Source: Tubulanus polymorphus (taxonomy: Eukaryota; Animalia; Nemertea). From it: a stretch of DNA of 64,000 nucleotides. A program made the translations under genes and the position numbers. The DNA lies in the NCBI RefSeq assembly GCF_964204645.1, contig NC_134032.1:7428275-7492274 (forward strand). Direction: 5' to 3'. Below, piece by piece: positions 12,201 through 64,000 of the stretch; the first letter of the stretch is position 1, and each line of letters begins with the position of its first letter. Below the pieces are notes generated by a model that saw only the letters and a program-made list of their open reading frames with translations, made no database searches and was not told where the DNA came from.

Positions 12201-13264
12201 GTTTACCCCCCTGCCTAGCACATGACGTTTTTGAGGGTATACTGAAAATTGATCTTGGCCTTATATTAAATGATTTTATTAAGAAAAAGTGGTTCACAGC
12301 ATCTAATGTTGTTGATAGATTTAGAAAATTCAAATTAGCAGGGTCTGATGTCCTAGATAGGCCATGTTTGAGTGTTGACAAAAAAAAGAAGAAATCAGTT
12401 AAAGTAAGTGGGAGTGCCGTTCAGAATTGGAACCTACTTCGTTTGATTCCGGTGGTTTTAGAAGATGAAATTCTGAATACATCAGATGAAGTATGGCGAT
12501 TGTTTATTATGTTAAAGCAGGTAGTTGAGTATATATGTTCTCCATGTGTCACCATGGAAATGTTAGCGATGATGGAAACTTTGATTGAACAGTATATTCA
12601 ATTGAGGATTGATGTATTCCCAAATTCTAATTTACGTCCTAAGCACCATTTTATCCTACACTATCCATTGATGACATTGTATTTTGGCCCTTTAATTAGA
12701 CTCTGGACTTTACGCATGGAAAGCAAACATACATACTTCAAGCAAATTGTCAGACGAACTCAAAACTTTAAAAACGTCTTATTTTCACTTTCTGAAAAAC
12801 ATCAGTATCTTCAGGCATACTATTCTATTGGTAGTCTCTTTTCTCCAAACTTGACTTATGTTGAAGGTTTCAAATTTGTTGACAGTATTTATAGTGCTGA
12901 GATTTCTAAGTCTGTACGAGATGTCATACCTTATTCCAAACAGTGTTTAGTGACTAAAGAAATTAATTTCAAAAGTGTTATATATAAATTGGACAGTGAC
13001 ATGCATGTAGCTATCTCAAGTAGTGAAAGTGAGACAGTGTTTGGAAGAATTATTCTACTGCTTGTTTCCGATGAGGAACCATTCTGCGTCGTGGACCTGG
13101 AGAATGCTATATACTCTGAAGCATACGGTGTATTCGAGCTCCAATTGAAACAGGAAAAACTGTGTTTAAAACTGTCAGAATTATGTGATTTTTATCCACT
13201 GCCATCTTACAAAATGTCCTCAAAAAATGTGGTTGTAATCAAACATGCATTGGTGATGCGTTAA
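9289..13264 (+). CDS. EnSpm/CACTA-type DDE transposase with four N-terminal C2H2 zinc fingers; spliced 9289-9321 + 10577-13264 (~906 aa)
   Basis: The 881-aa ORF has motifs LYQDEMEIVNPLGS, GDNLGSNGIGGF, CRYC, PPCLAHDVFEG and PKHHFILHYP..FGPL..WTLRMESKH. A phase-0 splice (CAG|gtaagc at 9321 to ttgtag|GAA at 10577) supplies the ATG. The acceptor exon completes the first finger (CLVC...HYREH). Confidence 0.9.
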
Positions 13265-16200
13265 TAAGGTACATTGATGAGGCATTTGATGTTCTAATTT
13301 TATACAGTTTTGTTCAAGATTGTTCTGTGTTATTTAAAGGTCATTGGCAAATTAAAAAAATTTATTTTAGAATTCAAGAATTACTTCTAATAGATAGATT
13401 GAAGTAAATAAAATGCTTGCATTCTGCTTGAATAAAGCATTAAAAAAGATGGCATAACGGGTTTCGATCAGCATTGCTTCTCCTGCACAACTACAATGTG
13501 GTCTGTTGTAAACAGCAGTGATTCATGACGTCATTTGATTCGCTCAGCAGCACGGTTACAATGTTGAAAGCATAGCACTCTACTTTTAATCAACTGTATC
13601 ATCGCTTATGTAATATGTATTATTTATTGAATGGCATCATTGGATAGCTATATAAACTGAGAAGAACCTTCAGTGAATGTCATGGATTGTTATGCACTGC
13701 GTTATCTGTATGAGCCAAATTAAAAACACTAGTACTGAAGTGAACTGAATAAAAGCTGCCTCAACGTGTGTATAGCAGACAGTCTCTGCAGCAGTGCGAA
13801 TCAAATGAGTCAATGTGAACCACTCCACTCGGTACTTTAGTGAACTACACACAGTGAATACAATGTGCTCTTAATCTTCACATAGGCGCGTTAACAAAAT
13901 AATTTGGTAAAATTATGATTAGAAATGTTTAGCTAGGTTAACAGGATGGTATTAAACTGTGAAATAGAAATTTGAAAAATTAGTGTGCCAATGACCGTTA
14001 ATTAAGACTAGCTGGTTGGTACATTAGTACCGATTAGTGGGTCTGTTATTTGAATTAATCAGGATTTTCAAGAGTTTTTTATTTAAAGTGTTGCTTCACT
14101 ATTAGTTCTTTATTATCATTATTATTATTATTCTTTATTCGCGAATTGAATTACATTAGAAAATTACAGCAGGTGATAACAAGATAATATAAAGTTGATG
14201 GACACCTGACAACAGTGTCATTTGAATATTTGAACCGAACCAGATGAATGGTACCGATTTAATCCTCTCAAGCAAAGTTGAAATACGTAGAAATTAGGTT
14301 CCATATAATAAAATATAATGGGTAAACAATATATAAATAGGACTTTGTGTATGAAATTGTTACCGCAATACTTTTTACTTTTAGGTGCCAGTCGTTCAAA
14401 GCGAGATGATCTTAAATGATACACTTGATATCTCAGACTACTCTAGTATCGATGTAAGTAATTAATTTAATCGAATAAATACTCAGTATTTGTGGCGGAT
14501 CAAGTATAGGATCAAAATCATAAACGTGAAATGTTTAAATGAAATTGTACCTGTAGTTTTTATGTATACATTAATTATTCTAAAATCACTGACTCTAGGA
14601 TTTGGCATAAAGAATTTGTGTGCAAGGACAGGTCGCTAATTTGTATCATGTGTCTCTGCATAACACAAAAAATGTTAAGTTGTGGCTGCGAGTTCAGAAA
14701 CCGACAGTTTTATATATTTACAGCTTTTTAATGTTTTTTTTTCAGTCATTACTCAGTTCAGGTTCTCCGAGTTATTATGTCGTGAAATATAACACACGAA
14801 GATGTGGTATCAAGGGAGATTGTTACGATGAATTAATCACTAAAGGTAAGCGCGACTTAAATGTGGATTCATTATTCTTTTCATTTAATATGTACACATA
14901 AAATTTGGATTTTGCAACCCCCTTCCCCTTGTTCGCAAAATCGGCCGTTTTTATGCTTTGATCATTATAGCACGTAGTTTTAATCATATACAAGAAATCT
15001 CATTCAACTCACTCAACTGACCTAATGGGACTATGATTTGTCTGAATTAGGCACTTAATTTAGTATTACATAGATGGAAAGATGTGTTTGTCCGAGTCGA
15101 ATAAATACCGGAAGTACATGTCCGATTTAGGGTTTACTTTTTTTTCTAGTATCGCTCAAATTCAACATTGATCCGAATGATTTCAAGATCACCCTAAAGG
15201 ATGGTGTGGAATTAGACGATGACATTTTCGATGTGGTGCCAAAGGGTACAGAAATGACTTTAGTTCCTGAAGTGAAAGGTGATTATAATAGGCATGTATT
15301 TGTACCCAATTCTGGGATTAGTACATGTAGTAGATGATACATTTTTGTTTCAGTTCTCACCTCTCTGGACAACACGACACCAACATCAATGCTGGAAAAC
15401 TCAACATATTCTCAACTAGATGAACCGTCAGCGAAGCTACTACTCCGAGAATCAACACCAGCACAGCGATTTGAGATACCTTTTAGTAAAATACCGCCAT
15501 CAATTCTCCAAAAATTAAATGGTGGTACAAGGCTTGATGAATCTAATCGATCATTACTATTGAAACTTATGTATGCAGAACTTAAAAGTTTCTGTGATAA
15601 GCCAGGAAATGCTGAATTTAAGCAAATTGCTGATGCGCTTACAAAGACCTTCCCAAAAGCATTCGAGTGTAGATTGCTCGATCAGGTTATAAACAATGGT
15701 TTCACTGCAATTTTCAAACGATTAGCATCATTCCGCGATCAAGAAACGCGCGAGAAGAAACGTAAAAGTGCCGTAGAGTTTGAAAACATTTCTGTGAAAA
15801 AGGCTAAATCCGACAATCCCACCATGAAGAAGCTTCAAGAACTTTTTCAAAGTGGACAAAAGCAGTCTGCTGAAATTGAACAGCTGCTCGAATCATTATA
15901 TGATAGTATTAGAATTGAAGCTCACACTAAACATGACATTAAATGTCTCATTGAGAGGTGGCCTCATGTCTTTAAGGAAATAGTTTATTTTGTACGTCTT
16001 TGCGAATGCTCTATCAATTTCGACCTAAAGGACTTTTCAACCCATGTTTCCACAAGGTTGGAGTTGCTGCGTACTTTTCTAGACAAGAAAAAGACCTTTG
16101 GCGGAAGAAAAACTACTGACGTGCATTTGCAATGTTTTGAAATGCTAACAACATTCTTCAAAGAGGACCGCAGTATTATTGAAATGAACCGAGATGATTC

Positions 16201-17501
16201 GTTTGAGGATGATCTCCCCTCGTCACCAACTATAAACATTTTCTGTAAGTATGCCGTCATATTTCAGGGCCCAAAATTGGATTTCAGTTCCACAGTTCCG
16301 AGTTAAGATTTGACTCCGAGTTAAAACATTGAAAATGAAGTATCCAGGACCCAGTTCCACAGTTCCGAGTTAGGATTTGACTCCGAGTTAAAACATTGAA
16401 AATGAACTAATTTTAACTCGGAGTTAACTATAACTCACAACTGTGGAACCGAGTCCTGGATAAAAATGCGGGATACTAGCTATTCAAAATATGGCATGGA
16501 ATTCACAACAAATTTATTTCCTTTTATGACGCGTTGTTGGCATGATATCTGTGCCATAGATATACTGTCAAAATTAAACTTGATATCTAACTTCAGACAT
16601 GTCAAAACACATCTAGTTATATAAGAAGAGCAAAATATCAATAATTGCTACGCTGTTGAAGATATCTAGATCTGATGTCTTTGTTGTGTGAATAATTTTG
16701 TCACATTTTCCATGAGCTTTAATCACAAATTATGAATAGTCTTTCACAGAACAATGTTTCAACTGAACATGGACGTATAAACTAGATATAAATTTCTAGT
16801 TTATACGTAAATGATCTGAATTACTTTTACTGTTTTAGCCGACTTGGGACTTAAGTCCCAGTGAGCTATTGTGTTCACATTTCATTTGTCAGTTTGTCTG
16901 TCTGTAAACGGAATCCAGTTGAAATCTTTTTGATTAACTGTTAAGCATTTAAAATTCCTTCCCAAATGGGCATGGTGTCTCGGACCTCTAGTTACCGCGG
17001 TGAGTGCCATTCAGCAAGGAGCTAATGTGGATGATGTAACTTTCTCAAGGACATCACAGCACAACCGCGGTTCGAACCCATGACCTTGCATTCCACAAAG
17101 CCGTACGCTCTAACTACTGGGCGATGCTGTTCATAAAACCATTTAATTGTATGCAGCTTAAAAATAATTCGATTTCAAATTGATTTTGACTGACTGGATA
17201 CTGCTGTATTATCAAATACATTCACAATATTACTTTCTTTTCAGCTGCTGTGAATGGTGAGGACCAATATATTATTACTGTGGACAAACTGATCATGTTT
17301 AAAGTCACTTCACAGATGGATGCACTGAAACTACTGTTTTGTTCTTATTTTGTCTTCAACATTAAATACCCAAGTGCAGTAGGCAATACCATGGAATTTT
17401 TCCAGCGCTACATAGTGTGTTACAACCCTCCAGGGAGAATTCGACCTAAAGTAGCGAAACTAGCTGATAGTTTGGCCAAGTATCACTTTAGTCAGCTATA
17501 A
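9289..17501 (+). CDS. Transposon ORF2 (TnpA-analogue) with CIDE-N-like N-terminal domain; exons 9289-9321, 14385-14453, 14746-14845, 15150-15278, 15354-16244, 17245-17501 (~492 aa)
   Basis: All junctions are GT-AG with matching phases (0,0,1,1,1) and no stops. The C-terminus ALKLLFCSYFVFNIKYP..MEFFQRY is typical of the second ORF of animal EnSpm elements. Use of the shared first exon is inferred. Confidence 0.8.
9534..10306. mobile_element. Putative non-autonomous TIR element nested in intron 1 of the CACTA element
   Basis: Inverted repeat GACCTGCCAACC (9534-9545) / GGTTGGCAGGTC (10295-10306); no clear TSD. Confidence 0.45.
13338..13997. mobile_element. Kolobok-like non-autonomous element (TTAA target) nested in the CACTA element
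   Basis: TTAA|AGGTCATTGGCA ... TGCCAATGACCG|TTAA; TIR matches at 11/12 with TTAA on both flanks. Confidence 0.7.
16341..16462. mobile_element. Short palindromic MITE in an ORF2 intron, with a partial tandem copy at 16285-16340
   Basis: TATCCAGGACCCAGTTCCACAGTT ... AACTGTGGAACCGAGTCCTGGATA. Related copies at about 40620-41195, 43930-44035 and 45765-45876. Confidence 0.65.
16880..17128 (-). mobile_element. tRNA-derived SINE in an ORF2 intron
   Basis: The minus strand reads tcgcccagtagttagagcg (A-box/D-arm-like) ... ggtcatgggttcgaacc (B-box). It is not a complete tRNA. The 3' boundary is approximate. Confidence 0.55.
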
Positions 17502-48870: not shown

Positions 48871-50788
48871 CGTCCCGTGAGAGGACCCGAATCAACACAC
48901 TGTCCCGTGAGAGGACCCGATTTTAAATAATGTCCCGTGAGAGGAGCCGAATCAACTTACTGTCCCGTGAGAGGACCCGATTCAACACACTGTCCTGTGA
49001 GAGGACCCGATTTTAAATAATGTCCCGTGAGAGGACCCTATTTTAAATACTGTCCCGTGAGAGGACCTGGTTCAACACACTCTCCCGTGAGAGGACCCTA
49101 TTTTAAATACTGTCCCGTGAGAGGACCCGATTCAACACACTGTCCCGTGAGAGGGCCCGATTCAACACACTGTCCCGTGAGAGGACCCTATTTTAAATAC
49201 TGTCCCGTGAGAGGACCCGATTCAACACACTGTCCCGTGAGAGGGCCCGATTCAACACACTGTCCCGTGAGAGGACCCTATTTTAAATACTGTCCCGTGA
49301 GAGGACCCGATTTTAAATGCTGTCCCGTGAGAGGACCCGAATCAACTTACTGTCCCGTGAGAGGACCCGGTTCAACACACTGTCCCGTGAGAGGAACCGA
49401 TTTTAAATAATGTCCCGTGAGAGGACCCGATTTTGAATACTGTCCCGTGAGAGGACCCGAATCAACTTACTGTCCCGCGAGAGGACCCGGTTCAACACAC
49501 TGTCCCGTGAGAGGAACCGATTTTAAATACTGTCCCGTGAGAGGACCCGATTCAACACACTCTCCCGTGAGAGGACCCGATTCAACACACTGTCCCGTGA
49601 GAGGACCCGGTTCAACACACTGTCCCGTGAGAGGACCCGGATCAACACACTGTCCCGTGAGAGGACCTGGTTCAACACACTGTCCCGTGAGAGGACCCGA
49701 TTTTAAATACTGTCCCGTGAGAGGACCCGATTCAACACACTGTCCCGTGAGAGGACCCGATTTTAAATACGGTCCCGTGAGAGGACCCGAATCAACTTGC
49801 TGTCCCGTGAGAGGACCCGGTTCAACACACTGTCCCGTGAGAGGAACCGATTCAACTTACTGTCCCGTGAAAAGACCCGATTTTAAATAATGTCCCGTGA
49901 GAGGACCAGGTTCAACACACTGTACCGTGAGAGGACCCGATTTTAAATACTGTCCCGTGAGAGGACCCGAATCAACTTGCTGTCCCGTGAGAGGACCCGG
50001 TTCAACACACTGTCCCGTGAGAGGAACCGATTTTAAATACTGTCCCGTGAGAGGACCCGATTCAACACACTCTCCCGTGAGAGGACCCGATTCAACACAC
50101 TGTCCCGTGAGAGGACCCGGTTCAACACACTGTCCCGTGAGAGGACCCGGATCAACACACTGTCCCGTGAGAGGACCTGGTTCAACACACTGTCCCGTGA
50201 GAGGACCCGATTTTAGATACTGTCCCGTGAGAGGACCCGATTCAACACACTGTCCCGTGAGAGGACCCGATTTTAAATACGGTCCCGTGAGAGGACCCGA
50301 ATCAACTTGCTGTCCCGTGAGAGGACCCGGTTCAACACACTGTCCCGTGAGAGGAACCGATTCAACTTACTGTCCCGTGAAAAGACCCGATTTTAAATAA
50401 TGTCCCGTGAGAGGACCCGATTCAACACACTGTCCCGTGAGAGGACCCGATCTTAAATACTGTCCCGTGAGAGGACCCGATTTTGAATACTGTCCCGTTA
50501 GAGGGCCCGGTTTCAAATAATGTCCCATGAGAGGGCCCGATTCAACACACTGTCCCGTGAGAGGACCCGATTTTAAATACTGTCCCGTGAGAGGACCCAA
50601 ATCAACTTACTGTTGCGTGAAGGAACCCGATTTTAAATACTGCCCCGTGAGAGGACCCACTTTTAAATACTGTCCCGTGAGTGGACCCGAATCAACTTAC
50701 TGTCCCGTGAGAGGACCCGATTCAACACACTGTCCCGTGAGGACCCGATTTTAAATTCTGTCCCGTGAGGGGACCCGGTTCAATTCAC
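48871..50788. repeat. 30-bp minisatellite, about 64 units
   Basis: TGTCCCGTGAGAGGACCCGA plus one of three 10-mers (TTCAACACAC, TTTTAAATAC, ATCAACTTAC). Confidence 0.98.
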
Positions 50789-50867
50789 CGTTCAATTCAA
50801 GTTGGTGAGTGGACCTTTATGACAAATAGTGAATATTGGTGGAATATTTCTCTATTTTGATTTATAG

Positions 50868-52056: not shown

Positions 52057-52287
52057 ATGAATGTAGTAATGGAACCAGAACAACCACAAATTATCAATAT
52101 TACAAATAACACTGGTGTTATAAATATATACTACAAGAAGTGTTCTAAATGTGAATTAGATAAATCATTAACAGAATTTAGTAAGCGTAAGATTAGCAAA
52201 GATGGTTTTCAATATTGCTGTAAAACTTGTTTTAAACTATATACCAAACAATATCGAGAAGATAATATAGAACATTATAATTATTAA
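52057..52287 (+). CDS. Zinc-ribbon N-terminal half of an NCLDV-type HNH endonuclease
   Basis: KKCSKCELDKSLTEF...CCKTC; in frame with the next ORF across a single TAA. Confidence 0.65.
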   Translation: MNVVMEPEQPQIINITNNTGVINIYYKKCSKCELDKSLTEFSKRKISKDGFQYCCKTCFKLYTKQYREDNIEHYNY

Positions 52288-52743
52288 ATGGCAGAATATA
52301 TGAGAGAAAGATATCAAACAGATCTTAATTTTAGATTGAAACAATGCTTAAGATCTAGATTAACACAATTATTCAACAAAGAAACACATTCAGAAACATT
52401 ATCTAATTTGTTGGGTTGTTCAGATGAATTTTTCAAATCATGGATTATATTTCAATTCGATGATAAAATGAATATAGATAATTATGGGGATTATTACCAT
52501 ATTGATCACGTGTTACCAATATCTAAATTTAACATGAATGATGAATACAATAAAAAACTTATTTGGGGTTGGAAAAATTTAAGGCCTTTAGAAAAGAAGG
52601 AAAACATAATTAAATCTAATAAACTAGATTTACAGTTATATTTAGAACAGTTAACAAAGGCAAAGAAATTTATTGATCAATGGAACAATAATCCAAATAA
52701 TGAACAATACGTTGAGGAATTTGATATCAAGGATCCGAAATGA
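52288..52743 (+). CDS. HNH endonuclease domain (NCLDV/phage type)
   Basis: RLKQCLRSRL..LLGCS..NYGDYYHIDHVLPISKF..WKNLRPLEKKENIIKSNK. Confidence 0.8.
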   Translation: MAEYMRERYQTDLNFRLKQCLRSRLTQLFNKETHSETLSNLLGCSDEFFKSWIIFQFDDKMNIDNYGDYYHIDHVLPISKFNMNDEYNKKLIWGWKNLRPLEKKENIIKSNKLDLQLYLEQLTKAKKFIDQWNNNPNNEQYVEEFDIKDPK

Positions 52744-53046
52744 CTTATCTGGACAGTTATAACTACTGCTCCTAATAGATAAACAAAAGTAGTGAGATAT
52801 CAAATAGATTTTAAATAAAAAGTATTTAAAAAACAATAACTTCAACCAGCTTGTGAATTCTATTATATTTTTAATATTTTCTTTTCAAAAAAGAATACTT
52901 TATATCACAAATAAAAAATACTTAAAAAAACAATAACTAATACTAAAATTCTTTACCTTTAACTAAGCTAGTATTAATCTAAAGAGATACTGGTATCATT
53001 TGAAGAATACTTATAATATTTTTTTTGCTTTTTTCCTCTAATATAA

Positions 53047-53649
53047 ATGTCAAAGAAATCTAATAAGAATAGTATTGATATTGAAAAAACATTAGATGAT
53101 TTGGGTATAATTGATAATAAAGATACAGTTGTAACTAATTGTGCTCAAGTTAATTGTAATATTGATTATGAATACTATTTATATTGTAAGCATCATCTAG
53201 AACTATTGATTGCCGGTGGAAAAACTAAAGAGTTTTTAACTAAGACTATTACTTTTCAAGAATTAGATGTTATGAAACCAGATAAAGTAATAAAATATTT
53301 TAAGATTTATGAAAAGGCAAGATTAGCTAAAATAAATGATTCTATTTCAGATGGTATTGTCAAATGTTATTCAAAATTATGTAACCAGTTAATACCAATT
53401 AATGATGAAAATAAATTATATAGTGATTTGAAAAATGACTACTTAGTTATGACTGAATTACAAAAATGGGTTGGATATGCTTCATTTCAATTAGGATCGG
53501 TTATGACATTAATTTCTACTGGCGTCATAACATTTTCGAACATCAAGCCTATGGAATATAAATCAGGTAAGAACGAAACAGATGTACTACAACCAAACGT
53601 CGAAACAGAAAATGAATCAGAAGAAAAATTAACTAAAATAAATGAGTGA
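53047..53649 (+). CDS. Polinton hypothetical protein with a hydrophobic segment near the C-terminus
   Basis: 200-aa ORF, TAAATG start, hydrophobic stretch LGSVMTLISTGVITF. Confidence 0.75.
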   Translation: MSKKSNKNSIDIEKTLDDLGIIDNKDTVVTNCAQVNCNIDYEYYLYCKHHLELLIAGGKTKEFLTKTITFQELDVMKPDKVIKYFKIYEKARLAKINDSISDGIVKCYSKLCNQLIPINDENKLYSDLKNDYLVMTELQKWVGYASFQLGSVMTLISTGVITFSNIKPMEYKSGKNETDVLQPNVETENESEEKLTKINE

Positions 53650-54031
53650 TGGCGTTAAGAAAAAGGTTAGATCTGAAAAACAAATTAAATGGGCAAGATA
53701 TTTAGGTAAAAGATCTTCAGAATTAAAAAAAGCTAAGAAAAAGAAATTAACTGATATAAATGAATCACCTGATATTGATTCAAATAATAATCCATCTGAT
53801 TCTTCTAATGCTGGAAGTAATTATAAATTATATATTACAATTGGATTAGTAACAGTTATTATATTATCCGGTGTAATATATAAATCAAAATTCAAATCTA
53901 ATGATAGAGATGATTCCAATGACAATCGGAAACTTAGTTATCCGTGTACAGACAGTAAACCTATCATACCAGAAAATAAGTCAAATCATAAAGCCATTGA
54001 AACTAAATCTAAATTATTATTAATGGATTAA
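53642..54031 (+). CDS. Polinton single-pass membrane protein with basic N-terminus
   Basis: TM segment LYITIGLVTVIILSGVIY; TAAATG start; 8-nt overlap with the previous ORF. Confidence 0.75.
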   Translation: MSDGVKKKVRSEKQIKWARYLGKRSSELKKAKKKKLTDINESPDIDSNNNPSDSSNAGSNYKLYITIGLVTVIILSGVIYKSKFKSNDRDDSNDNRKLSYPCTDSKPIIPENKSNHKAIETKSKLLLMD

Positions 54032-54037
54032 AATAAG

Positions 54038-55129
54038 ATGAAAAAAGAACAATATTTAAGAGATTTATATTATAACCCAGAAAGTGAAGTATCATATTCT
54101 AACGTTTCAGAATTATGGAATAAAATTAAATCTGATAAAGAAAATGGTGGTATAAAATATAGTGAATTGAAATCATGGTTACAAAATCAACCAACATATC
54201 AAATCCACAAGAAAATGGATAAAACTTATTTAACAAGAAAAGTTATGGTTTCATATATCGATCAACAATGGCAAGCAGATTTAATTGACATGAAGAACTT
54301 AGAGGAATACAACAAAGGATATTTCTGGATACTGAATGTTATAGATATATTCAGTCGATACGCATGGTCAATTCCAATCAAAAATAAAACTGGAATAGAA
54401 GTTACAAATGCTTTTAAATCAATATTTAAAGAAGCTATTCCAGATAAGATACAATTTGATGAAGGTAAGGAATTTTATAACAAACATTTTAAAAAACTAT
54501 TATCTGATAACGATGTAGACTATTTTTCAACACACTCAGATAAAAAAGCATCTATTATAGAAAGATTTAATAAAACATTGAAAACTAGAATGTGGAAATA
54601 CTTTACTGCTAATGAAACATATAAATATATCGATGTGTTAGATGATTTAGTGAAAGGTTATAATAATTCTAAACATAGTTCTATAAATATGAAACCTATA
54701 CAAGCTAGAAAAGAAGATAATCCGGAAATAGTTTGGAATAATTTATATGGAGCGTTTGTTACACATGATTTCGGTGAACCTAGATTCAAAATTGGACAAC
54801 ACGTAAGAATATCTAAATATAGAAAAACCTTTTATAAAGGTTATACTCCAAATTTTACTGAAGAAATATTTAAAATTAAAAAGATAATATTAACTAAACC
54901 TTTTGTTTATAAATTAGAAGATCTAAAAGATGAAGAAATATTAGGTTATTTCTATGAACAAGAATTATCACTTGTACCAAATCCAGATGAAATAGAATAC
55001 AAAATAGAAAAAGTATTGAAAACAAAAACTCTTAAAGGAAAAAAGTATTCTTTGGTGAAATATAAAGGATACGATGATAAATTTAATGAATGGATTTTAT
55101 CTAGTAAAATTAAAAGAATATATGAATAA
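54038..55129 (+). CDS. Retroviral-like (rve) integrase with C-terminal chromodomain
   Basis: DDE motifs WQADLIDM, IQFDEGKEF, IERFNKTLK; YNNSKHSSI.MKP; chromodomain YKIEKVLK..LVKYKGYDDKFNEWI. Confidence 0.96.
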   Translation: MKKEQYLRDLYYNPESEVSYSNVSELWNKIKSDKENGGIKYSELKSWLQNQPTYQIHKKMDKTYLTRKVMVSYIDQQWQADLIDMKNLEEYNKGYFWILNVIDIFSRYAWSIPIKNKTGIEVTNAFKSIFKEAIPDKIQFDEGKEFYNKHFKKLLSDNDVDYFSTHSDKKASIIERFNKTLKTRMWKYFTANETYKYIDVLDDLVKGYNNSKHSSINMKPIQARKEDNPEIVWNNLYGAFVTHDFGEPRFKIGQHVRISKYRKTFYKGYTPNFTEEIFKIKKIILTKPFVYKLEDLKDEEILGYFYEQELSLVPNPDEIEYKIEKVLKTKTLKGKKYSLVKYKGYDDKFNEWILSSKIKRIYE

Positions 55130-55733
55130 AGATTTATTTATATTTGAACCGCATAATATGTTAGTTACTGGAGTAACCAATTGTGGTAAAACACATTTCA
55201 TATTAGACTTGTTAGAAACTATTTATAAGAATCATTTTGATAATATAATATTATTCTGTCCTACTTATGAAATGAATAAAACATATAATAGAGATATAGT
55301 TAAGATGAAAAAGTTTATTATATTAAATCCTAAAACAGTAAAAGAAAATTTAGATAATTGTATAAAAATAGCAATTGATACTTATAAAGGATCAAATACA
55401 TTATTCATTATAGATGATTGCGCAAATTTACATGATTCAAAAGTTAGAGAAAGTGAGTTATGTTATCTAGCTTTCTCTGGAAGACATTTTGGGATAACAA
55501 CATGGGTTTTAAATCAAAGATATAATTCAATTGTTAAAGACTTTAGGGATAATATAGGATTTCTAGTTTTATTTTATAACAAAGATAAAAAATCTATGCA
55601 ACAATCATTGGAAGAAAATCAAATTATACCTACTGAATTACATGATGAATATATGAATAAATTAAAGAATAATCAAGGTTCAAAATTATTACTGAGACTA
55701 CAATTTCCCTATGAATATAAATTTATAAAATAA
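55122..55733 (+). CDS. A32/FtsK-like genome-packaging ATPase
   Basis: Walker A GVTNCGKT, Walker B LFIIDD, GRHFGI motif. The start at 55122 (8-nt overlap with the integrase) is preferred over 55074. Confidence 0.93.
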   Translation: MNKDLFIFEPHNMLVTGVTNCGKTHFILDLLETIYKNHFDNIILFCPTYEMNKTYNRDIVKMKKFIILNPKTVKENLDNCIKIAIDTYKGSNTLFIIDDCANLHDSKVRESELCYLAFSGRHFGITTWVLNQRYNSIVKDFRDNIGFLVLFYNKDKKSMQQSLEENQIIPTELHDEYMNKLKNNQGSKLLLRLQFPYEYKFIK

Positions 55734-55740
55734 CTATTTG

Positions 55741-55850
55741 TGTACCTATGTATTAGATACCCTATTAGATACCCTAATACCTGATACCCCATTAGATACC
55801 CTAATACCTGATACCCTAATACCTGATACCCTATTAGATACCTTAAATAC
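55741..55850. repeat. Short tandem repeats (TATTAGATACCC / TAATACCTGATACCC) between the convergent Polinton gene blocks
   Basis: About 8 GATACC-containing units, read directly. Confidence 0.85.
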
Positions 55851-55931
55851 TTAAAACCCCCTTTTTTATTTACTATTATTTTATACAATTTTCAACTAAT
55901 ATTATTATTTGAGTTAAATATAATTAATATC

Positions 55932-56750
55932 TTAATCACTTTCACTATCACTCTCCAATTCACTATCAGGCCCTAACAATTTATTCAAATGCTCTACCGA
56001 ATCTACATCAATAGTTGTTTTATTTTTATATTTTTTCATCCTTTCTACCGCATCATCAATAGTTTCTTCTTTATGTTTCATAGAATCTTTATTATCAATA
56101 TCTGTAACTATATCACCATGTGGGCGCCGTATGGCAGCATTTTCATTATTATCTTTATTAGTGTTTGCTCCTAATATTTCATTTACAGTGTTTGGTTTTA
56201 ATATTTCATTAGCATCGGTTAGATCTAATTCATCTTTATTAGGTGTTGCTAATAATAAATCTTTATATAATTCTTTACCATTTACTTTTTGATTTGAAAC
56301 AAACTTTGTAACATATCTAAATGGGTGTTCTATAAATTCTCTTAAACCAACACGTTCTATAACATTATTTATATGTACCTTTGTATTCATATGTTTATTC
56401 CAATTTGATGGAGCGTTTGAAAATTCACCTTTACAATAATCACAATAATTTCTATTTTTACTAACATTTAATATTATTGCATTATTATATGTAGAAGGTA
56501 TTACATTATTAGATGTAGTAGGTATTACATTATTAGATGTAGAAGGTATTACATTATTATCAATTACATTACTTAAATTATCAACAACTTCACTTTTATT
56601 ATTATCGATTTCTATTAGTTTAGTTTTATAAATTTTGAAAATAGGATCAAATATCAAAGCTATATTACAAGGTATTACATAATATAAACCATCATTATTT
56701 TCATGTGTATCGATGTATGGAATATGTTTATATACTTTACCTCCTTCTAT
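55932..56750 (-). pseudogene. C2H2 zinc-finger protein; start codon apparently mutated ATG>ATA
   Basis: YCDYCKGEF..WNKHMNTKVH finger, NNVIPST repeats and an acidic tail. The frame is open up to TAA-ATA-GAA at 56750, matching the TAAATG context of neighbouring genes. Confidence 0.65.
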
Positions 56751-56782
56751 TTATTATATATATTTATATTAAAGTTAAAATT

Positions 56783-58030
56783 TTAATACATAACACTATC
56801 TAATTGTGAATTTACAATATTTAATTGCGCGTCAGATATAATATAAATGTGCATTTTAAAATTTTTGATTCCTTTATTCTTTGTCATGAATAATTGTATT
56901 CCATCTTTAGTGTTTTGTAATTTTTTTCCAGAACCATGTTATGAATTATCCTCTGTTGTTCTAAAATCTAACCATAATGCATATTTATTGCCGGTATAAT
57001 AATCAATTTGGTTAATGTTACAATTTTCAGATGATTTTACTTTTTCATTCATAAAATGTTTTCTAATTTCTGGCCATTGATCAATCATTCTCATTCCTTG
57101 ACAAAATATTTTATTTGCTATTCCTTCGATAGTTATTTCTACTTTTGTTATTTCAGGATTATAATAATTATCAACATTTATTGCGCCATTAGTATATGTT
57201 GCAATGGTAAAAAATATTAATATACCTTTAATAGATCTTCTTGGGAAGTTAATATTCTCATTAATTATTTCATCATTTGCATTAATAGTTACGGTTTTAA
57301 ATTTATCAATATAATCATATAATAATGAAAATCCTTGATTGTATTGAGTTTGAATTATACTTGAAATATTTTCATCAGTTACTGTATCATATTCTAAACA
57401 TATATTCGATAATTTATAACTCATATCTTTAACAACGCTAGATAATACAATTTCATTTACAGGAGCAAATGTTATTTCGAATATAACGTCTTCTTGAATT
57501 GCGTATTTATATAAAGGTGCATTATTATTTATCAATTCAAGGTCTAATGGAATTTTATATTTGCTTCCATATATACTTTTTATCAATTCATCTACAGCAT
57601 TAGTTAATATTGCGCTATTAGCTTCTGATCTTAACTTATTTTGGTTTTCTGATTGGATGCCTTGAAATATCATATTATTTCTATTTTCTTTAGTTAACCA
57701 TAAATCTTTATAATGCATGAATAAATTATAATCATCTAATGAGAAAACTGTTTCTGGACCAATCTTTATTGTTAACTTTTTAATCAAATATCTTCCAACA
57801 TTATCAACAACATAATTATTATTATTACCGATTACTTTTATATCGGCCGATAAATAAATACTTTTTGGAACATAAAAAGTATTTTTTGTTAATCGAGGGA
57901 TTCTAACGTATAAAGTTTCATCGGGATTAATATTTGAAGGGTTATGAGTAATTATACGATGTGATCTCTCTGCTTTAATAGCATTAGATATTCTAGAAAT
58001 CTTCGAAGGATTGATATAACTCCCACTCAT
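56783..58030 (-). pseudogene. Major capsid protein (double jelly-roll type) with a premature TAA at 56939-56941
   Basis: ITHNPSNINP.ETLYVRIP, LSNICLEYD, NINFPRRSIKGILIFF, YYNPEITKVEITIEG, YALWLDFRTTEDNS*HGSG, then 51 further open codons ending ISDAQLNI..VMY*. Confidence 0.88.
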
Positions 58031-58063
58031 TTATTTAACAAAAAGATTAATTATTTATTTTTA

Positions 58064-58153
58064 ATCATGGTTACTTGATATTTTTTGATATCATGTTTAC
58101 TTGATATCTTTTGATATCATGTTTACTTGATATCTTTTGATATCATATTTACT
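58064..58153. repeat. 26-bp tandem repeat (3+ copies) spanning the stop codon of the 490-aa ORF
   Basis: Unit ATCATGTTTACTTGATATCTTTTGAT. Confidence 0.85.
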
Positions 58154-59595
58154 AAACCAAAAATAATAGCACTTACAACTGTAATTAAAAATAGAATAAT
58201 ATGTTCAGCAGCAAAGTTAATAATGTTTCCTGCAGATTTCAATATAAAACCAACAATTGATGCAATAACACCAGGTAAAGCTGCAGCAGATTTTTTAGAC
58301 AGTTCCCATAAATATTTTGCTAATTTCTTTAAACCATCTTTAACTTTATCTTGTATAGAATTATTACCTGGGGGTTTATCTGGTTTATTGGGAGTAGGAG
58401 TAGATTTTAAAGCATTTGATATAGCTAAACCTATTGTTGTAAATAACATAGTTACAGCTGTTAGAATTGAAAATATTGTTATTCCTTCAAACTTAAATAA
58501 TAATTTTATTCTATCTTTTAGTGATATGTCAGAATTTGGTTTTAGTATTAACTCTTTAACAACAACTTTTAATCTATTAATACAATAATCATATGATTTT
58601 AATAATAATTTCATTTTTTCTTTCTGAAATTCTATGTTATATTCTAAATCATCAATTTCTTTTTCTAAATATGCATTTCTTTTTTTAAATTCAATTTCTT
58701 CAATAACTTTAAATTCTCTATCTAATTTTAATTGTTCTAATTCTTTTCTGGTGTCAAATAATTTATTTTCTAAAGGTTTAATTTTATTATATCTAATATT
58801 TTTTTCGCGCACAATTTTATCGGCTTCATTTCGTATACTTATTATTTCTCTAATTGTTTTTTTAGAAAACATACTTAAAGCTTCTATTTCTTGATCTGTT
58901 GCATCAAGTAATCCATTCGGTAAAAGTTTTTCAGTTTGAATTTCGTTTGATTTAAGTTTACTAGTTTTTGAAGTTTTATTCTGTTCAGAAGTTGTTTCTG
59001 TTTCCGGATTATCTTTGATTGTTTCAAATAATTTATTAATTCTTTGTTTAAATACTCTTTTATTTTGATTTATTTCTTCTTGTGTTACATCTTCTATTTC
59101 ATTACTATTTCCTATTCTCTTAATTCTAGATAGTAATGAGTCAAACTTAAGCAAAGTTGATTTTGCTACTATTTTGTCTTCATTTTTATTAGAAATATTT
59201 ATATAATAATCCGAATCATCTTTCAAATGATAATAATATTCACCATCTAAAAACTTTAATTTTTTTACTAAAAATCTGGCGACTTTATCATTTATATTAC
59301 ATCCAGATCTTTCAAATACATCTTGGAACTTATATATAAATTCTTTATATTCTATATCTTCCTTTGATAAACCTGGAATTTCATTTTCAGGAGGTATTCT
59401 CGATCTAGTTCTTCTATCAAATTCATCTGTTGATGGGACTTTAGAACCACTATCTGCTAAATTAGAATTATATGCTGATTCATCATCATTATCAATATTA
59501 GTTTCATTAAAATCAGGTTGTGGTTCATCATCAATATATCCTTCATTATTATTTCCCATTTCTCCCATTTCATAATCTTCTCCACCTTCTGCCAT
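58123..59595 (-). CDS. Coiled-coil protein with C-terminal hydrophobic/TM helices
   Basis: Acidic N-terminus, long heptad-like region, then ITIFSILTAVTMLFTTIGLAI, AAALPGVIASIVGFIL and IILFLITVVSAIIFGLV. Confidence 0.85.
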   Translation of the reverse strand: MAEGGEDYEMGEMGNNNEGYIDDEPQPDFNETNIDNDDESAYNSNLADSGSKVPSTDEFDRRTRSRIPPENEIPGLSKEDIEYKEFIYKFQDVFERSGCNINDKVARFLVKKLKFLDGEYYYHLKDDSDYYINISNKNEDKIVAKSTLLKFDSLLSRIKRIGNSNEIEDVTQEEINQNKRVFKQRINKLFETIKDNPETETTSEQNKTSKTSKLKSNEIQTEKLLPNGLLDATDQEIEALSMFSKKTIREIISIRNEADKIVREKNIRYNKIKPLENKLFDTRKELEQLKLDREFKVIEEIEFKKRNAYLEKEIDDLEYNIEFQKEKMKLLLKSYDYCINRLKVVVKELILKPNSDISLKDRIKLLFKFEGITIFSILTAVTMLFTTIGLAISNALKSTPTPNKPDKPPGNNSIQDKVKDGLKKLAKYLWELSKKSAAALPGVIASIVGFILKSAGNIINFAAEHIILFLITVVSAIIFGLVNMISKDIK

Positions 59596-59611
59596 TTACA
59601 TAATAAAAAAA

Positions 59612-61000
59612 TTAAAATTTAAAATATAATATTCCTCCTATAACAATTCCTATACAGGTTATAGCTAATTTAGTATTTTCATGGGATTTATTATCATCAT
59701 TTAGTTTAATTATATCATGTTGAATATTATCAGTTTTTATATTTTCTGATGTATTATAATCTTTTATTTTAGAATCATTATTTAATTTAATATTCTTAGT
59801 TTTAGTTTCAGTTGATTGAATGTGTTTTTTATTTTTTTCACCTTCCATTAATTTTGGAGCAGTAATGATCTTTTTATTTATATCATTCAATCCAAATGAA
59901 TTATTTATTGTTGCAGTTTTAATTAGATTATTATAACCAATTATGTTTCCCATCTTTAATACTAAATCATTAGAAATAATTAATAGATTAGGGCCTATAC
60001 AATAATTTAATCTAATATGTGATTTATCTAAATAATTTTGATATCTTATAATGTTTTCTGGAATCGATCTATTTTTATCATTATGTATGGAATCATCAAA
60101 TAATACTTTGAATTGTTTTTGTGTATCGAATGATGTATTCAAATATCCAATTATTGGTGATCTTGTTTCAACTTGCGCACCTAAAATACATATCAAATAA
60201 GTTCTAATAGATTGATTTATTCTTTGTATACCTGATTTTGTAAAACCTTCATTATTTTCTAAAATGAAATAAACCCAACCATTATTGTTTTCTTGTTTTA
60301 AATTATCATAAAATGTCGGTAATTTATTGAAATTTAATGTTTCTAAATCCTTAGTTTCTATTTTACCATAACCTAATTTATGACTATAGATATTATACAA
60401 ACTATTAGATGGTATGGGAAGTGCACAATATTCTGCAATCTTTTTAGGGCAAGGAAGTGATCTTATTGTTCCAATTTTTGTTCTAATATCAGAATTATTT
60501 ATATCTATATTAAATTCATTGCAAATTTTATAAAACTTTGATAAATTAATATTATTATCTAATTCTTTAAAATATCTAGATCCTGGTAAAGCGCACTCTA
60601 ATTCATTTAATATTATTCTGATTTGAAAGTATGTATGAAATCTAAATAAACTTTGAATTAATTTATATTTAGAATTATTCAAATGATCATTCCAACTAAT
60701 TCCACATCCTGTTGTTGCACAATAAACAGCAAAATTTAATTGGTTCTGCCAATACTTCATATTAGATTTTAATAACCATTGTTTTTCATCTTTCAATTTT
60801 TTAAAATTAATTAAATATACATGAAATATATTTTCCATCTTTGCATTAAAATTATTAGTTTCAGTAACATAAATTTCTAAATTAGTTAATGAATCTAAAA
60901 CTTCATTTCTATATGTAATATCTTTATTAAAATCTATTGCTGGAATATTATATTTAATTGATTTATTGTATTGGAAAGCTTTTGGAAAACTATCTGCCAT
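59612..61000 (-). CDS. Polinton hypothetical protein with C-terminal TM anchor
   Basis: 462 aa; YWQNQLNFAVYCATTGCGIS, FRFHTYFQIR, YLICILGAQVETRSPI; terminal LAITCIGIVIGGILYF. Confidence 0.85.
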   Translation of the reverse strand: MADSFPKAFQYNKSIKYNIPAIDFNKDITYRNEVLDSLTNLEIYVTETNNFNAKMENIFHVYLINFKKLKDEKQWLLKSNMKYWQNQLNFAVYCATTGCGISWNDHLNNSKYKLIQSLFRFHTYFQIRIILNELECALPGSRYFKELDNNINLSKFYKICNEFNIDINNSDIRTKIGTIRSLPCPKKIAEYCALPIPSNSLYNIYSHKLGYGKIETKDLETLNFNKLPTFYDNLKQENNNGWVYFILENNEGFTKSGIQRINQSIRTYLICILGAQVETRSPIIGYLNTSFDTQKQFKVLFDDSIHNDKNRSIPENIIRYQNYLDKSHIRLNYCIGPNLLIISNDLVLKMGNIIGYNNLIKTATINNSFGLNDINKKIITAPKLMEGEKNKKHIQSTETKTKNIKLNNDSKIKDYNTSENIKTDNIQHDIIKLNDDNKSHENTKLAITCIGIVIGGILYFKF

Positions 61001-61016
61001 TTATATAATTAAAAAA

Positions 61017-61451
61017 TTAATAATTTATTAATTCTTTTAATAATTTATCTTGTTCTTCAACTGTTATATGACCATTTAAACTTATGATATAATCTAGTGT
61101 GTTCTTTAATTTATTAATTTCTTTTATATTAGTTTTAATTTTTTCTTTATTACTTTTTATATTTAATTTTGAACTTATACCAGTTAAAACACTTCAACTT
61201 AATCCTAACACACCAATTGATATAGCTAAAGGTGTTAATGGGCTGAATATTGCTAAAAATGTTATTACAGAACTAATTGTAACCGAACCACTAATAATCA
61301 CATAATAAATAATTTTACTTTTTAGATATTTTTTCTTTTTAACTTTTAAGTCACTTTCAAATTCTAATATTTGTTTTTCTAAATATATTTTTAATTTAGT
61401 TTTATTTATATCATGAGGAATAATATCAATACTATCAACTTTATCTTCCAT
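61017..61451 (-). pseudogene. Two-TM/coiled-coil protein interrupted by an in-frame TGA at 61194-61196
   Basis: The frame continues *SVLTGISSKLNIK...DKLLKELINY* and fills the gap to the next gene. Confidence 0.75.
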
Positions 61452-61473
61452 TTATTTAGCAAAAAAAAAATTA

Positions 61474-61896
61474 CTAATTAGTAAACTTATAAGCAACAAA
61501 TATAACAATAACAGTTCCACCTAAAATCCATATTATTTCATATTTCTTCTGTTCATTACTTGGGGTATAATAATCTGATAATTTAGGTTTGTATAGATGT
61601 AATTTTTCTTTATTGGTTACCGCGTTATATATACTCATTGCATCATCAACTGATTGAAAATCTCTATGTGAAATCTTCTGATCATATAATTCTTTATTTA
61701 TGTAATCCATATAGTTTTGTCTCTTTTCTCTATTTTCTTCTGCAGCTTTATTGTATTTCTCTAATGCTAAATTATGTCTTCTTTGTTCTCCTAATGAACT
61801 ATTTTTATCAATATGTTTAAATAAATATCCACCTCCAGTAAATGCTAAAGCGTTAACAATTGCCGATCCTATAATAGTTATAATTGCAGAAGCCAT
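61474..61896 (-). CDS. Membrane protein with hydrophobic Gly-rich N-terminus and C-terminal TM
   Basis: MASAIITIIGSAIVNALAFTGGGYLF ... IIWILGGTVIVIFVAY. Confidence 0.85.
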   Translation of the reverse strand: MASAIITIIGSAIVNALAFTGGGYLFKHIDKNSSLGEQRRHNLALEKYNKAAEENREKRQNYMDYINKELYDQKISHRDFQSVDDAMSIYNAVTNKEKLHLYKPKLSDYYTPSNEQKKYEIIWILGGTVIVIFVAYKFTN

Positions 61897-61920
61897 TTAT
61901 TTAGCAAAAAAATTATGCAT

Positions 61921-62142
61921 TTATATGGGAGGAATATATTTTTGTTTTTCCAAATAATCAATAGTTAAATTAGATAAAGTAACTGCTAACGTTAATTTTA
62001 AAATATCATTTATATCAAATCTATCAACATTAACACTTCCCATTTTGAATACTTTTTTTAATACCATTGAATAACCAACAGTTCCAACTGATAGTAATGC
62101 GCCATTATATAATCCAGTTATTATCCACTTATTATCACTCAT
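61921..62142 (-). CDS. Small hydrophobic protein (73 aa)
   Basis: TAAATG start, two hydrophobic segments, fits the tight gene packing. Confidence 0.75.
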   Translation of the reverse strand: MSDNKWIITGLYNGALLSVGTVGYSMVLKKVFKMGSVNVDRFDINDILKLTLAVTLSNLTIDYLEKQKYIPPI

Positions 62143-62218
62143 TTATCTATCAAAAAAATTACTATCATCAAAATATTTAGTTATCTTATTTATGATTAAT
62201 TCAAAATTTATTTCATTA

Positions 62219-62497
62219 CTAGTTTTTTGTATATATTTCAATTATTATTTTTTTAATATCATCGATGATAAAATCTTCATCTAATTCATAAAATCTTAAA
62301 GATTCTCTAATTAAATTAATAATCTTTTCTACATTTAAAGTTTCTTTATCTATTGTTGTTTCATACTCAAATGTTGTTTCATTAGAAAATGCAATATTTT
62401 TGATATGTGTAATTACATCATTAATGTTAAATTTCATTTCTTTCTCACGTTTAAAATCAAACCCAAAACATATACTCGGTCCAACAGTTATATTCAT
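62219..62497 (-). CDS. Polinton hypothetical protein (92 aa)
   Basis: TAAATG start; packed between the mCP gene and the 73-aa gene. Confidence 0.7.
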   Translation of the reverse strand: MNITVGPSICFGFDFKREKEMKFNINDVITHIKNIAFSNETTFEYETTIDKETLNVEKIINLIRESLRFYELDEDFIIDDIKKIIIEIYTKN

Positions 62498-62513
62498 TTA
62501 TATAGGTGAAAAA

Positions 62514-63263
62514 TTACTCTTTACATCTTATAACTAATTCATAAATTACAGGAAAGTTATTCAAATCAATTAAGTATCCATTATGATTTCTAATTTCTAA
62601 TCTAAAATTATAAGGAATACAAGGTTTGAAATCACATTCAGCTAAATTATAATTTATTTGCGTTCCAAATTGTTTAACATTTTTTAATGGTAAAATATTT
62701 AATATACTAGAATTACAAATTGTATCTTTAGTTGCTTCGAAAGTTTTTGTAGGCTCGATTAAATTGCAATAAATATAAAAGTGTGTAAAAGGTATTATGT
62801 TTGTATAAGTATCAATATTTGAATAATGTCTATCCGTAAGAATTCCAAACAGTTTAGCTAAAGGTTTTCTTACTAGAAATCTATGTTGTTCATTAGTTAA
62901 CTTTATTCTTATTTTATTCGAACTATCACTTTTGATGAATTTAATTTCAAATCGAGCAGCTGAGCCCATTTTTAAACGAGCTCTTTTATTAATTTCTTGC
63001 GCTAATGTTTCTAAATTATATAATCCTGGTTTGAGATAAAGATGAAACCATTTATTCAAATTTCTATCATAAATCTTAAAAGCTAAATGATCAAGACTTT
63101 TATTCGATATATTATGAAAAGAATTACATAAACTTATATTAACTAATTTTAAATCTACACAATTCTTAAATTCTCTATCTAATTGTACTAATAAATTATG
63201 TGATTTATAATTTGTAAGTTTTCTAGAATCTACAAATATTCTGTATTCTTTTAATTCTACCAT
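62514..63263 (-). CDS. Minor capsid protein (penton, single jelly-roll)
   Basis: IFVDSR, LVNISL.NSFHNIS, LKPGLYN, LAKLFGI, FYIYCNLIE, LEIRNHNGYLIDLNNFPVIYEL. Confidence 0.85.
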   Translation of the reverse strand: MVELKEYRIFVDSRKLTNYKSHNLLVQLDREFKNCVDLKLVNISLCNSFHNISNKSLDHLAFKIYDRNLNKWFHLYLKPGLYNLETLAQEINKRARLKMGSAARFEIKFIKSDSSNKIRIKLTNEQHRFLVRKPLAKLFGILTDRHYSNIDTYTNIIPFTHFYIYCNLIEPTKTFEATKDTICNSSILNILPLKNVKQFGTQINYNLAECDFKPCIPYNFRLEIRNHNGYLIDLNNFPVIYELVIRCKE

Positions 63264-63280
63264 TTATTTTACATATTTTC

Positions 63281-63634
63281 TCATTCGAAATCTATTTCAT
63301 GGTGCCCCTTTTCATTCTTACCTTTGTATACGAAATAGAAATCTCCAGAACATAATTCTTCTAAATCTTCACTTGATAATCTATGAAATCTATCCGGTAA
63401 ATATGTTCTGAATTTATATGTATTTCCTTTTAATCCTTCATATTCTAAGTGTATAACTAATTTATCTCCATATTTGTTAGTAACTGTAACAATATTTGTA
63501 ATTAGATATTTCTTATGGATTGTTAATTCTGTAAACTTTTTGAATTTATAATCTACAGATTTTACATTTGTAGTATCTTTAATTCTATCAAGAAATAATT
63601 TGTTGTTCTCACTGTGCGCTTGTTTACTCTCCAT
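63281..63634 (-). CDS. Small beta-rich protein next to pPolB, possible ssDNA-binding protein
   Basis: FKKFTEL..KKYLI..VTNKYG..LVIHL..TYLPDRF..FVYKGK; the function is inferred. Confidence 0.7.
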   Translation of the reverse strand: MESKQAHSENNKLFLDRIKDTTNVKSVDYKFKKFTELTIHKKYLITNIVTVTNKYGDKLVIHLEYEGLKGNTYKFRTYLPDRFHRLSSEDLEELCSGDFYFVYKGKNEKGHHEIDFE

Positions 63635-63663
63635 TTTAATAACATATTTTTATTAAAATTTGA

Positions 63664-64000
63664 TTAACACGTTAGAATTCTTTTCATTATCTCGTTCTCT
63701 TTTGTTTCTTCTCTTTTAAATTTTAAGTATTCATCTAAATTGCAACCATAAGCAACTGTATGAATTCCATCATCTAAAATATATCTTTTATCATCAAATG
63801 GGTTTAGACTTATCTTTTCAATTTCTTCAATAAACATTTCATGATCTTCAGATCTTAAACATCTCATCTTATGTTTTCTAACTTCTTCTTTGAGTATACA
63901 ATTGATGTAATCTTTGAAATGAATATTCTTTTCTGCTACACTTTTGGTTATTCCTTTTAACTTTTTACTTCATGTTCCTTAGTTTTATATGAATACATTT
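63664..64000 (-). CDS. Protein-primed family B DNA polymerase, C-terminal part (5' part outside the window; 1-nt frameshift at 63962-63966)
   Basis: MYSY..EVK/KLKGITK..HFKDYINC..LRS..KISLNPFDDKRYILDDGIHTVAYG. Confidence 0.92.

Follow-up and report, generated by a model that had tools for sequence, protein, structure and literature searches.

The right-hand part of the 64,000-nucleotide stretch of contig NC_134032.1 (Tubulanus polymorphus) analyzed here, which we call the window, holds an integrated Polinton-type element. Its genes, like those of its close relatives, begin at a signal resembling the late promoters of vaccinia virus, in which a T-rich core is separated by roughly six bases from the word TAAATG, itself laid over the start codon. 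Because this signal occurs in the element and its close relatives and is absent from ordinary Polintons, it is probably read by the RNA polymerase of a helper virus. The explanation we favor is a helper-dependent, virophage-like family whose late promoters would be served by the polymerase that a cytoplasmic large DNA virus brings along on co-infection, a reading that we regard as probable on sequence comparison. The window copy is itself decayed, so the claim concerns the family and not this particular insertion.

An earlier reading made from the sequence only had counted exact TAAATG at 11 of 16 gene starts in the window. All 11 ATGs carry the word, but the one at 52288 is no gene start, because the TAA before it (52285-52287) interrupts an HNH-like gene, which in the related locus L007 is a single open reading frame (ORF) of 244 residues matching both window halves; among reads of other copies, 402 of 407 and a further 370 of 375 differ at this stop codon. 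The gene itself has a weak Pfam HNH_4 match (E 0.03). After correction, exact TAAATG stands at 10 of 15 visible starts (binomial p 5e-9), nine of them with T at -9, a position that we count as nine bases before TAAAT, whereas -3 and +4 are counted from the ATG. The near matches listed at 54038 (TAAGATG), 63634 (TAAAATG) and 56750 (TAAATA) are as described; at these three starts and at 55122, orthologues in L001-L004 start at exact TAAATG, and the fifth inexact start, 52069, lies at the truncated left end. The short intergenic gaps are also real, with 16-29 bp separating 6 of 16 neighboring ORF pairs. An ATG within TAAATG is by construction the first after a stop, and first ATGs were hence compared with first ATGs. 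On this footing the suspected enrichment over matched background was borne out, with the word present at 11 of 19 ORFs of at least 60 residues but at 21 of the 308 ORFs below that length in this region (Fisher p 6e-8), at 1 of 35 long ORFs in the 52 kb of host flank and at 7.0% of starts in a third-order Markov simulation.

Alignment of the capsid protein retrieved 21 metagenome loci (L001-L021). We left L018-L021 unscored (fragments, 23-28% identity) and kept L003, a near-duplicate of L002, off the main counts; the lineage set is the window plus 14 loci, with capsids 50-75% identical, GC content from 0.20 to 0.44 and shuffled gene order. TAAATG starts 65 of the 79 genes in this set, a total that includes the false start at 52288, and 61 of those 65 have T(-9). 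In L001 alone the motif precedes 15 of 17 different genes, 14 with T(-9). Orthologue alignments begin within a few residues of the TAAATG ATGs, indicating that these are real starts, and an integrase tree places the window with L001, L002, L004 and L005 in one clade (100/99). The control set comprised 16 loci chosen by integrase similarity, blind to the motif and mostly ordinary Polintons, of which 14 were scored after dropping L056 (a near-duplicate) and L069 (not Polinton-like). Here TAAATG was found at 5 of 75 gene starts (p 3e-23 versus the lineage), so that comparison with other Polinton clades, which the sequence-only reading had suggested, sets the lineage apart. The motif was found at none of 8 starts in the sister loci L016-L017 (capsid identity 42-47%) and at none of 15 in L070-L071. 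Scans of viral contigs with the capsid and with the ATPase found no relative, nor did a capsid search of genome contigs or an integrase search of phage records. Scanning viral contigs for the motif pattern instead brought up L034, a further Polinton lineage in which all 7 genes start at TAAATG, four of them with T(-9); only one of these seven had been selected by the pattern. The motif-pattern scans (11 and 20 loci) otherwise returned mostly chance matches, only L034 and the giant-virus-like contig L052 having the motif at most genes.

The upstream part of the signal is position specific. T occupies -9 at 62 of 66 gene starts (94%), compared with 30% of 96 decoy TAAATG sites (p 2e-17); enrichment of T extends from -12 to -7 (decoys about 30%) with its peak at -9 and 77% at -10. 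A is common at -15 and -14, and nothing is conserved upstream of -16. T at -3, which the sequence-only reading had flagged as the reverse of the usual start context, is present in 66 of 79 lineage genes, whereas ordinary Polintons have a purine there in 53 of 75; G follows at +4 in 49 of 79. In the vaccinia late promoter, a core containing T residues is spaced 5-7 bp from TAAAT(G/A) (PMC5294985), the tenth base upstream is a conserved T, and TAAATG overlaps the start codon (PMC11980589); for intermediate promoters, the initiator is recognized directly by the poxviral polymerase (PMC12917281). The proposed likeness therefore holds for core, spacer and initiator alike. Unlike in vaccinia, the motif here sits on a small integrated capsid-encoding element in which no RNA polymerase was seen, and its promoter role is predicted. 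By contrast, the late initiators of African swine fever virus and pacmanvirus are TATA-type (TA(+1)TA or TATATA), which makes an asfarvirus, raised earlier as a possible helper, a worse fit to the conserved TAAATG; the late word of Cafeteria roenbergensis virus is TCTA, and mimivirus uses another AT-rich word. Coding regions of the lineage contain 17 sense-strand copies of TTTTTNT where 51 are expected, a threefold depletion that fits avoidance of a T-run signal; ordinary Polintons contain 29 versus 36 expected, and the corresponding value for A-runs is 0.8 in both sets. As a general terminator at gene ends, a role also proposed for TTTTTNT, the word was rejected: by eye, it lies within 63 nucleotides of only 1 of 14 convergent gene ends.

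Which virus might serve as helper is approached through the same signal in other contigs. Ten giant-virus-like loci had TAAATG at 38 of 118 genes, 26 with T(-9) and 82% with T at -10, a sample biased in that most were picked by the motif; the promoter profiles cover about a tenth of each giant-virus bin. In L052, a 505-kb contig with nucleocytovirus-like proteins, TAAATG occurs at 10 of 16 and AAATG at 14 of 16 starts in the 16 kb examined. L086, found by HNH similarity and not by the motif, has TAAATG at 3 of 13 starts, all with T(-9) (p 0.07); its polymerase subunit resembles RNA polymerase II more closely than it does any viral chain, and none of its 46 matches is named poxviral. A promoter motif shared with a large DNA virus, as expected of a virophage in the functional sense, is matched by vaccinia late promoters and by a subset of genes in non-pox giant-virus contigs. 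Because the signal recurs at some non-pox genes, the helper need not be a poxvirus. Of the proposal that a poxvirus or another nucleocytoplasmic large DNA virus transcribes the element, the lineage-wide, position-specific, two-part signal of pox-late type stands, but the poxvirus identity is not established, given those contigs. The helper would be a virus with poxvirus-type late promoters, and a true poxvirus seems about as likely as another nucleocytovirus. The motif-pattern scans returned no recognizable poxvirus contig, and homologues of the HNH and deoxynucleoside-kinase genes pointed out no helper.

In the model that we propose, the T-rich core, the spacer and TAAATG would together act as a late promoter for the helper polymerase. 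By analogy with vaccinia, transcription would start inside the AAA, slip and add a 5′ poly(A) leader, which would replace the T at -3 in the mRNA; a leader that hides -3 in this way would explain why T at that position in the DNA coexists with frequent G at +4. By analogy with mavirus-type elements, integrated copies could stay silent until helper late factors arrive and could then replicate and be packaged alongside the helper. We offer more tentatively, as a possibility that we still doubt, that an undiscovered poxvirus-like virus of marine invertebrates is parasitized by this integrated virophage lineage, the many copies serving as an inducible antiviral defense like that of mavirus in Cafeteria.

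Several points weigh against helper-driven transcription. Neither transcription start sites nor poly(A) leaders nor a helper virus have been observed (a sequencing run presumed to be RNA yielded a single contig, less than 90% alike, which speaks neither way), and orthologous starts are not independent of one another. Coding strands contain 345 copies of TAAAT(G) where 328 are expected, with no sign of depletion, and the T peak falls at the ninth base (94%, against 77% at the tenth), one off the published wording for vaccinia. An integrated, integrase-bearing element is nuclear, and helper factors must reach the nucleus. Related HNH genes in virus contigs are 25-47% identical, mostly in loci lacking the motif, and hence name no helper. 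In favor of a helper, RNA polymerase families gave no match among the proteins of the window or L001; the element is incomplete in every locus seen, however, so a polymerase gene could lie in the unseen part.

Other explanations of the signal are less likely. If it were a compact core promoter for host RNA polymerase II, or a translation-start convention, private to this lineage, the element would be an autonomous nuclear virus, as its chromodomain integrase, its many copies in host DNA, the enrichment of G at +4 and the failure to find a helper would all allow. We consider this unlikely, because T at -3 in 66 of 79 genes reverses the context of ordinary Polintons, and a fixed T twelve bases before the ATG, together with back-to-back signals within 19-30 bp, fits such a promoter poorly; RNA polymerase II promoters sit 25-30 bp from the start site. 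Coding strands also contain many copies of AATAAA, with no depletion (206 versus 212.5 expected, 57 kb), which counts weakly against nuclear processing. Chance, arising from AT-rich composition (GC 0.22-0.26) and tight stop-start packing with many short gaps, is a highly improbable source and was refuted by several observations. Matched controls give 7%; the motif persists in the loci with GC of 0.36-0.44 (L006-L008; 9 of 11 starts, p 2e-7 versus the ordinary set); all 16 scored head-to-head starts carry the motif with T(-9), one of them with a doubtful neighbor; and T(-9) is position specific. Moreover, the TAA of the motif is the stop of the upstream gene in only 1 of 41 tandem starts.

The polymerase might instead be encoded by a larger partner element of the same family, as in the cytoplasmic linear plasmids of yeast. 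These virus-like elements (pGKL1/2) derive from polintons (PMC11161782) and, like the family described here, are Polinton-related replicons with an initiator of TAAAN type, from which slippage in the yeast elements makes poly(A) leaders (PMC6211774); they differ in having their own RNA polymerase and an upstream early-type core, and in lacking capsid and integrase. The lack of any complete locus leaves room for such a partner, which we nevertheless think improbable, as no polymerase or capping gene was found among the scanned proteins of the window, L001 and L034, and nothing is conserved upstream of -16, where the yeast elements have a core related to poxvirus early promoters. It is likewise quite improbable that the motif is a relic, a promoter inherited from an ancestral helper virus in another host and no longer active in the element family of this animal. 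Decay of the window copy, where 5 of 15 starts are inexact, would suit a relic, as would the origin of the nearest relatives in environmental metagenomes. Against this, the family reached many copies in the window species, and the motif persists at nearly all genes although the proteins have diverged to 50-75% identity, which calls for continued selection.

As to its class, the element carries three features of Polintoviricetes: a retrovirus-like integrase (Pfam rve), a packaging ATPase (Pox_A32), both matches passing the cut-off, and, from modeling, a major capsid protein. It shares with Maverick/Polinton elements and adintoviruses (PMC8502044, PMC11161782, PMC10328495) the rve integrase with chromodomain, the A32-like ATPase, jelly-roll capsids and multi-copy integration, and may also share a protein-primed polymerase, of which a broken 3′ fragment is visible. 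In contrast to them, it has several membrane-anchor-like genes, and its capsid profile does not detect the ordinary Polinton capsids in L054/L056 (E 4.7 or worse), indicating another capsid lineage. Two Ulp1/adenain-like protease queries, run by tblastn, matched L034, L054 and L070 but nothing in the window or in L001-L017, all incomplete loci. The sampled ordinary Polintons also lack the promoter motif. Judged by its genes, the element is of Polinton type and not a typical Maverick, and we stop short of classing it as a full member.

The closest functional parallel is mavirus and the endogenous mavirus-like elements of Cafeteria, integrase-bearing endogenous viruses whose genes carry the late promoter motif of a giant virus and so share promoters with the helper (PMC8547959). 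There the motif is TCTA, the host a protist and the helper known and tested; here the motif is TAAATG, the host probably an animal and the helper predicted. The virophage likeness is one of promoter. Polinton-like viruses in entomopoxvirus occlusion bodies, proposed to be poxvirus parasites (PMC11296320), share animal hosts, the proposed parasitism and HNH genes held in common with large viruses. Compared by description, they differ in an adenovirus-type protease, the lack of an rve integrase and a link made by co-occurrence (PMC11296320); in a term search, promoter, motif and TAAAT were absent from the main text of that report, and promoter from its supplement. In an alga, a giant virus activates integrated Polinton-like viruses (10.1101/2025.10.09.676808).

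Sharing of promoters with a helper is a known principle. What appears to be new is that late promoters of pox type run through a whole lineage that bears an integrase and probably resides in an animal genome; full-text searches, with most subscription journals outside their coverage, returned no report of such a promoter motif in a Polinton. The finding bears on an open question, whether the Polinton-type elements of animals live as self-sufficient viruses of the nucleus or parasitize larger viruses. The signature (65 of 79 versus 5 of 75 starts) provides a cheap sequence test that could be applied to all known elements, predicts transcripts that open with a poly(A) head at the ATG and suggests that the host has a large DNA virus still to be discovered. 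Confirmation would bring to animals an endogenous virophage biology that has so far been tested in protists.

The element begins at 52068, where GC content drops from about 0.38 in the flank to 0.22-0.26 through the window end and where, to the left, 769 reads from other copies continue into different sequence. In genomic reads from a second study of the same species, depth on the element is about 150-1000, compared with 12 in the least-covered flank bin, and these reads are mostly 90-99% identical to the window copy. Depth and read identity together indicate a divergent multi-copy family, with copy number uncalibrated. Sparse coding, pieces of transposons and a parent contig of 16.7 Mb make an animal the probable host. 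The model of the shortened 363-residue capsid protein (predicted local distance difference test score, pLDDT, 76.5) has double jelly-roll major capsid proteins as its best fold matches, and on this model the gene encodes the major capsid protein. The minor capsid assignment is probable, the model being of low confidence (pLDDT 46) and its named fold matches including minor capsid proteins. The polymerase fragment is 47% identical, over 38 residues only, to the 1253-residue polymerase-like protein of L034 (E 2e-8), which has no Pfam polymerase match. Besides the early-ending capsid gene, at least four other window genes are broken. A conserved 442-residue protein had no match in a protein atlas.

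Features of the integrated element in the window, with the start signals of its genes
Feature	Position	Strand	Remarks
Integrated Polinton-type element	52068..64000	.	Left end truncated, right end past the window; decayed copy of a multi-copy family
HNH-like nuclease gene	52069..52743	+	Broken by the stop at 52285-52287; ATG 52288 internal; 52069 lies at the truncated left end
T-rich core and TAAATG, lacking T at -9	53032..53049	+	Start of 200-residue ORF 53047-53649; TAAATG also in orthologues of L001, L002, L004
T(-9) and TAAATG	53627..53644	+	Start of 129-residue ORF 53642-54031, within the end of the upstream gene; exact in L001, L002, L004
Retroviral-type integrase with chromodomain	54038..55129	+	Pfam rve E 2.6e-9, Chromo E 1.3e-4; motif inexact here, exact in L002
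A32-like packaging ATPase	55122..55733	+	Pfam Pox_A32 E 7.8e-13; has T(-9); initiator exact in L001-L004 and L011 but not in this copy
Zinc-finger-like accessory gene	55932..56750	-	Start codon lost and frame broken here; L002-L004 orthologues of 277-431 residues start at TAAATG
Major capsid protein gene (from model)	56939..58030	-	363 residues, early end; about 415 in relatives
T-run, spacer and TAAATG of capsid gene	58028..58045	-	Exact at the capsid start in 13 of 14 loci L001-L014 (exception L014)
T-run, spacer and TAAATG	59593..59610	-	490-residue ORF 58123-59595, two hydrophobic segments
T-run, spacer and TAAATG	60998..61015	-	462-residue ORF 59612-61000
T-run, spacer and TAAATG	61449..61466	-	ORF 61194-61451; 85 residues here, 144 in L001
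T-run, spacer and TAAATG	61894..61911	-	140-residue ORF 61474-61896; 20 nucleotides identical to the signal at 61448-61467
T-run, spacer and TAAATG	62140..62157	-	73-residue ORF 61921-62142
T-run, spacer and TAAATG	62495..62512	-	ORF 62219-62497
Probable minor capsid gene (62514-63263) with its signal	62514..63278	-	T(-9) and TAAATG at 63261-63278
117-residue ORF	63281..63634	-	TAAAATG in this copy but exact TAAATG in L001; has T(-9)
Probable protein-primed DNA polymerase B, 3′ end	63664..64000	-	Interrupted by stops; start outside the window

Some further features of the family are worth recording. At least four conserved genes (window 53642, 59595, 61451 and 61896, with their L001 orthologues) have hydrophobic segments, which, with no protease found, hints that the virion could have an internal membrane. 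Several breakpoints between copies coincide with or adjoin start signals: the left truncation at 52068 (the HNH start), a skip between near-identical signals at 61437-61893 and loose ends at 63264, where the minor-capsid gene starts. The signals may hence double as recombination joints. Short tandem repeats of 15-27 bp lie at 55741-55846, 56475-56559 and 58064-58153, one of them between converging gene blocks. The position of the HNH-like gene varies among relatives, with its own TAAATG start in L002 (5568), L007 (3289) and L008 (1717), as would be expected if it moved as a mobile cassette. In a giant-virus contig (L073:5311-9860, also L074/L086), an HNH-like gene related to that of the element lies between a 767-residue piece of the RNA polymerase second subunit and a 438-residue ORF, as if a homing nuclease had split the polymerase gene. 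L001, the closest long relative, also carries a deoxynucleoside kinase (10343-10981; Pfam dNK E 2e-31), which starts at a full TAAATG; three more homologues exist at 60-67% identity.

Among the other loci, L034 (684-8742; GC 0.38) has a protease-like domain fused ahead of the integrase, and its 1253-residue polymerase-like gene also starts at TAAATG. The ordinary Polinton contigs L054-L068 sit in bins of bacterial genomes, probably through misassignment of eukaryotic DNA. In the flank of the window, an intact-looking 895-residue zinc-finger ORF and an adjoining 322-residue ORF (10577-17501) have Pfam matches to zinc fingers only; we take the pair to resemble a DNA transposon. Nearer the element, 1.3 kb to its left, a 30-bp tandem array of about 60 units spans 48900-50790 and is preceded by a fragment that is presumably of the long interspersed nuclear element (LINE) type.

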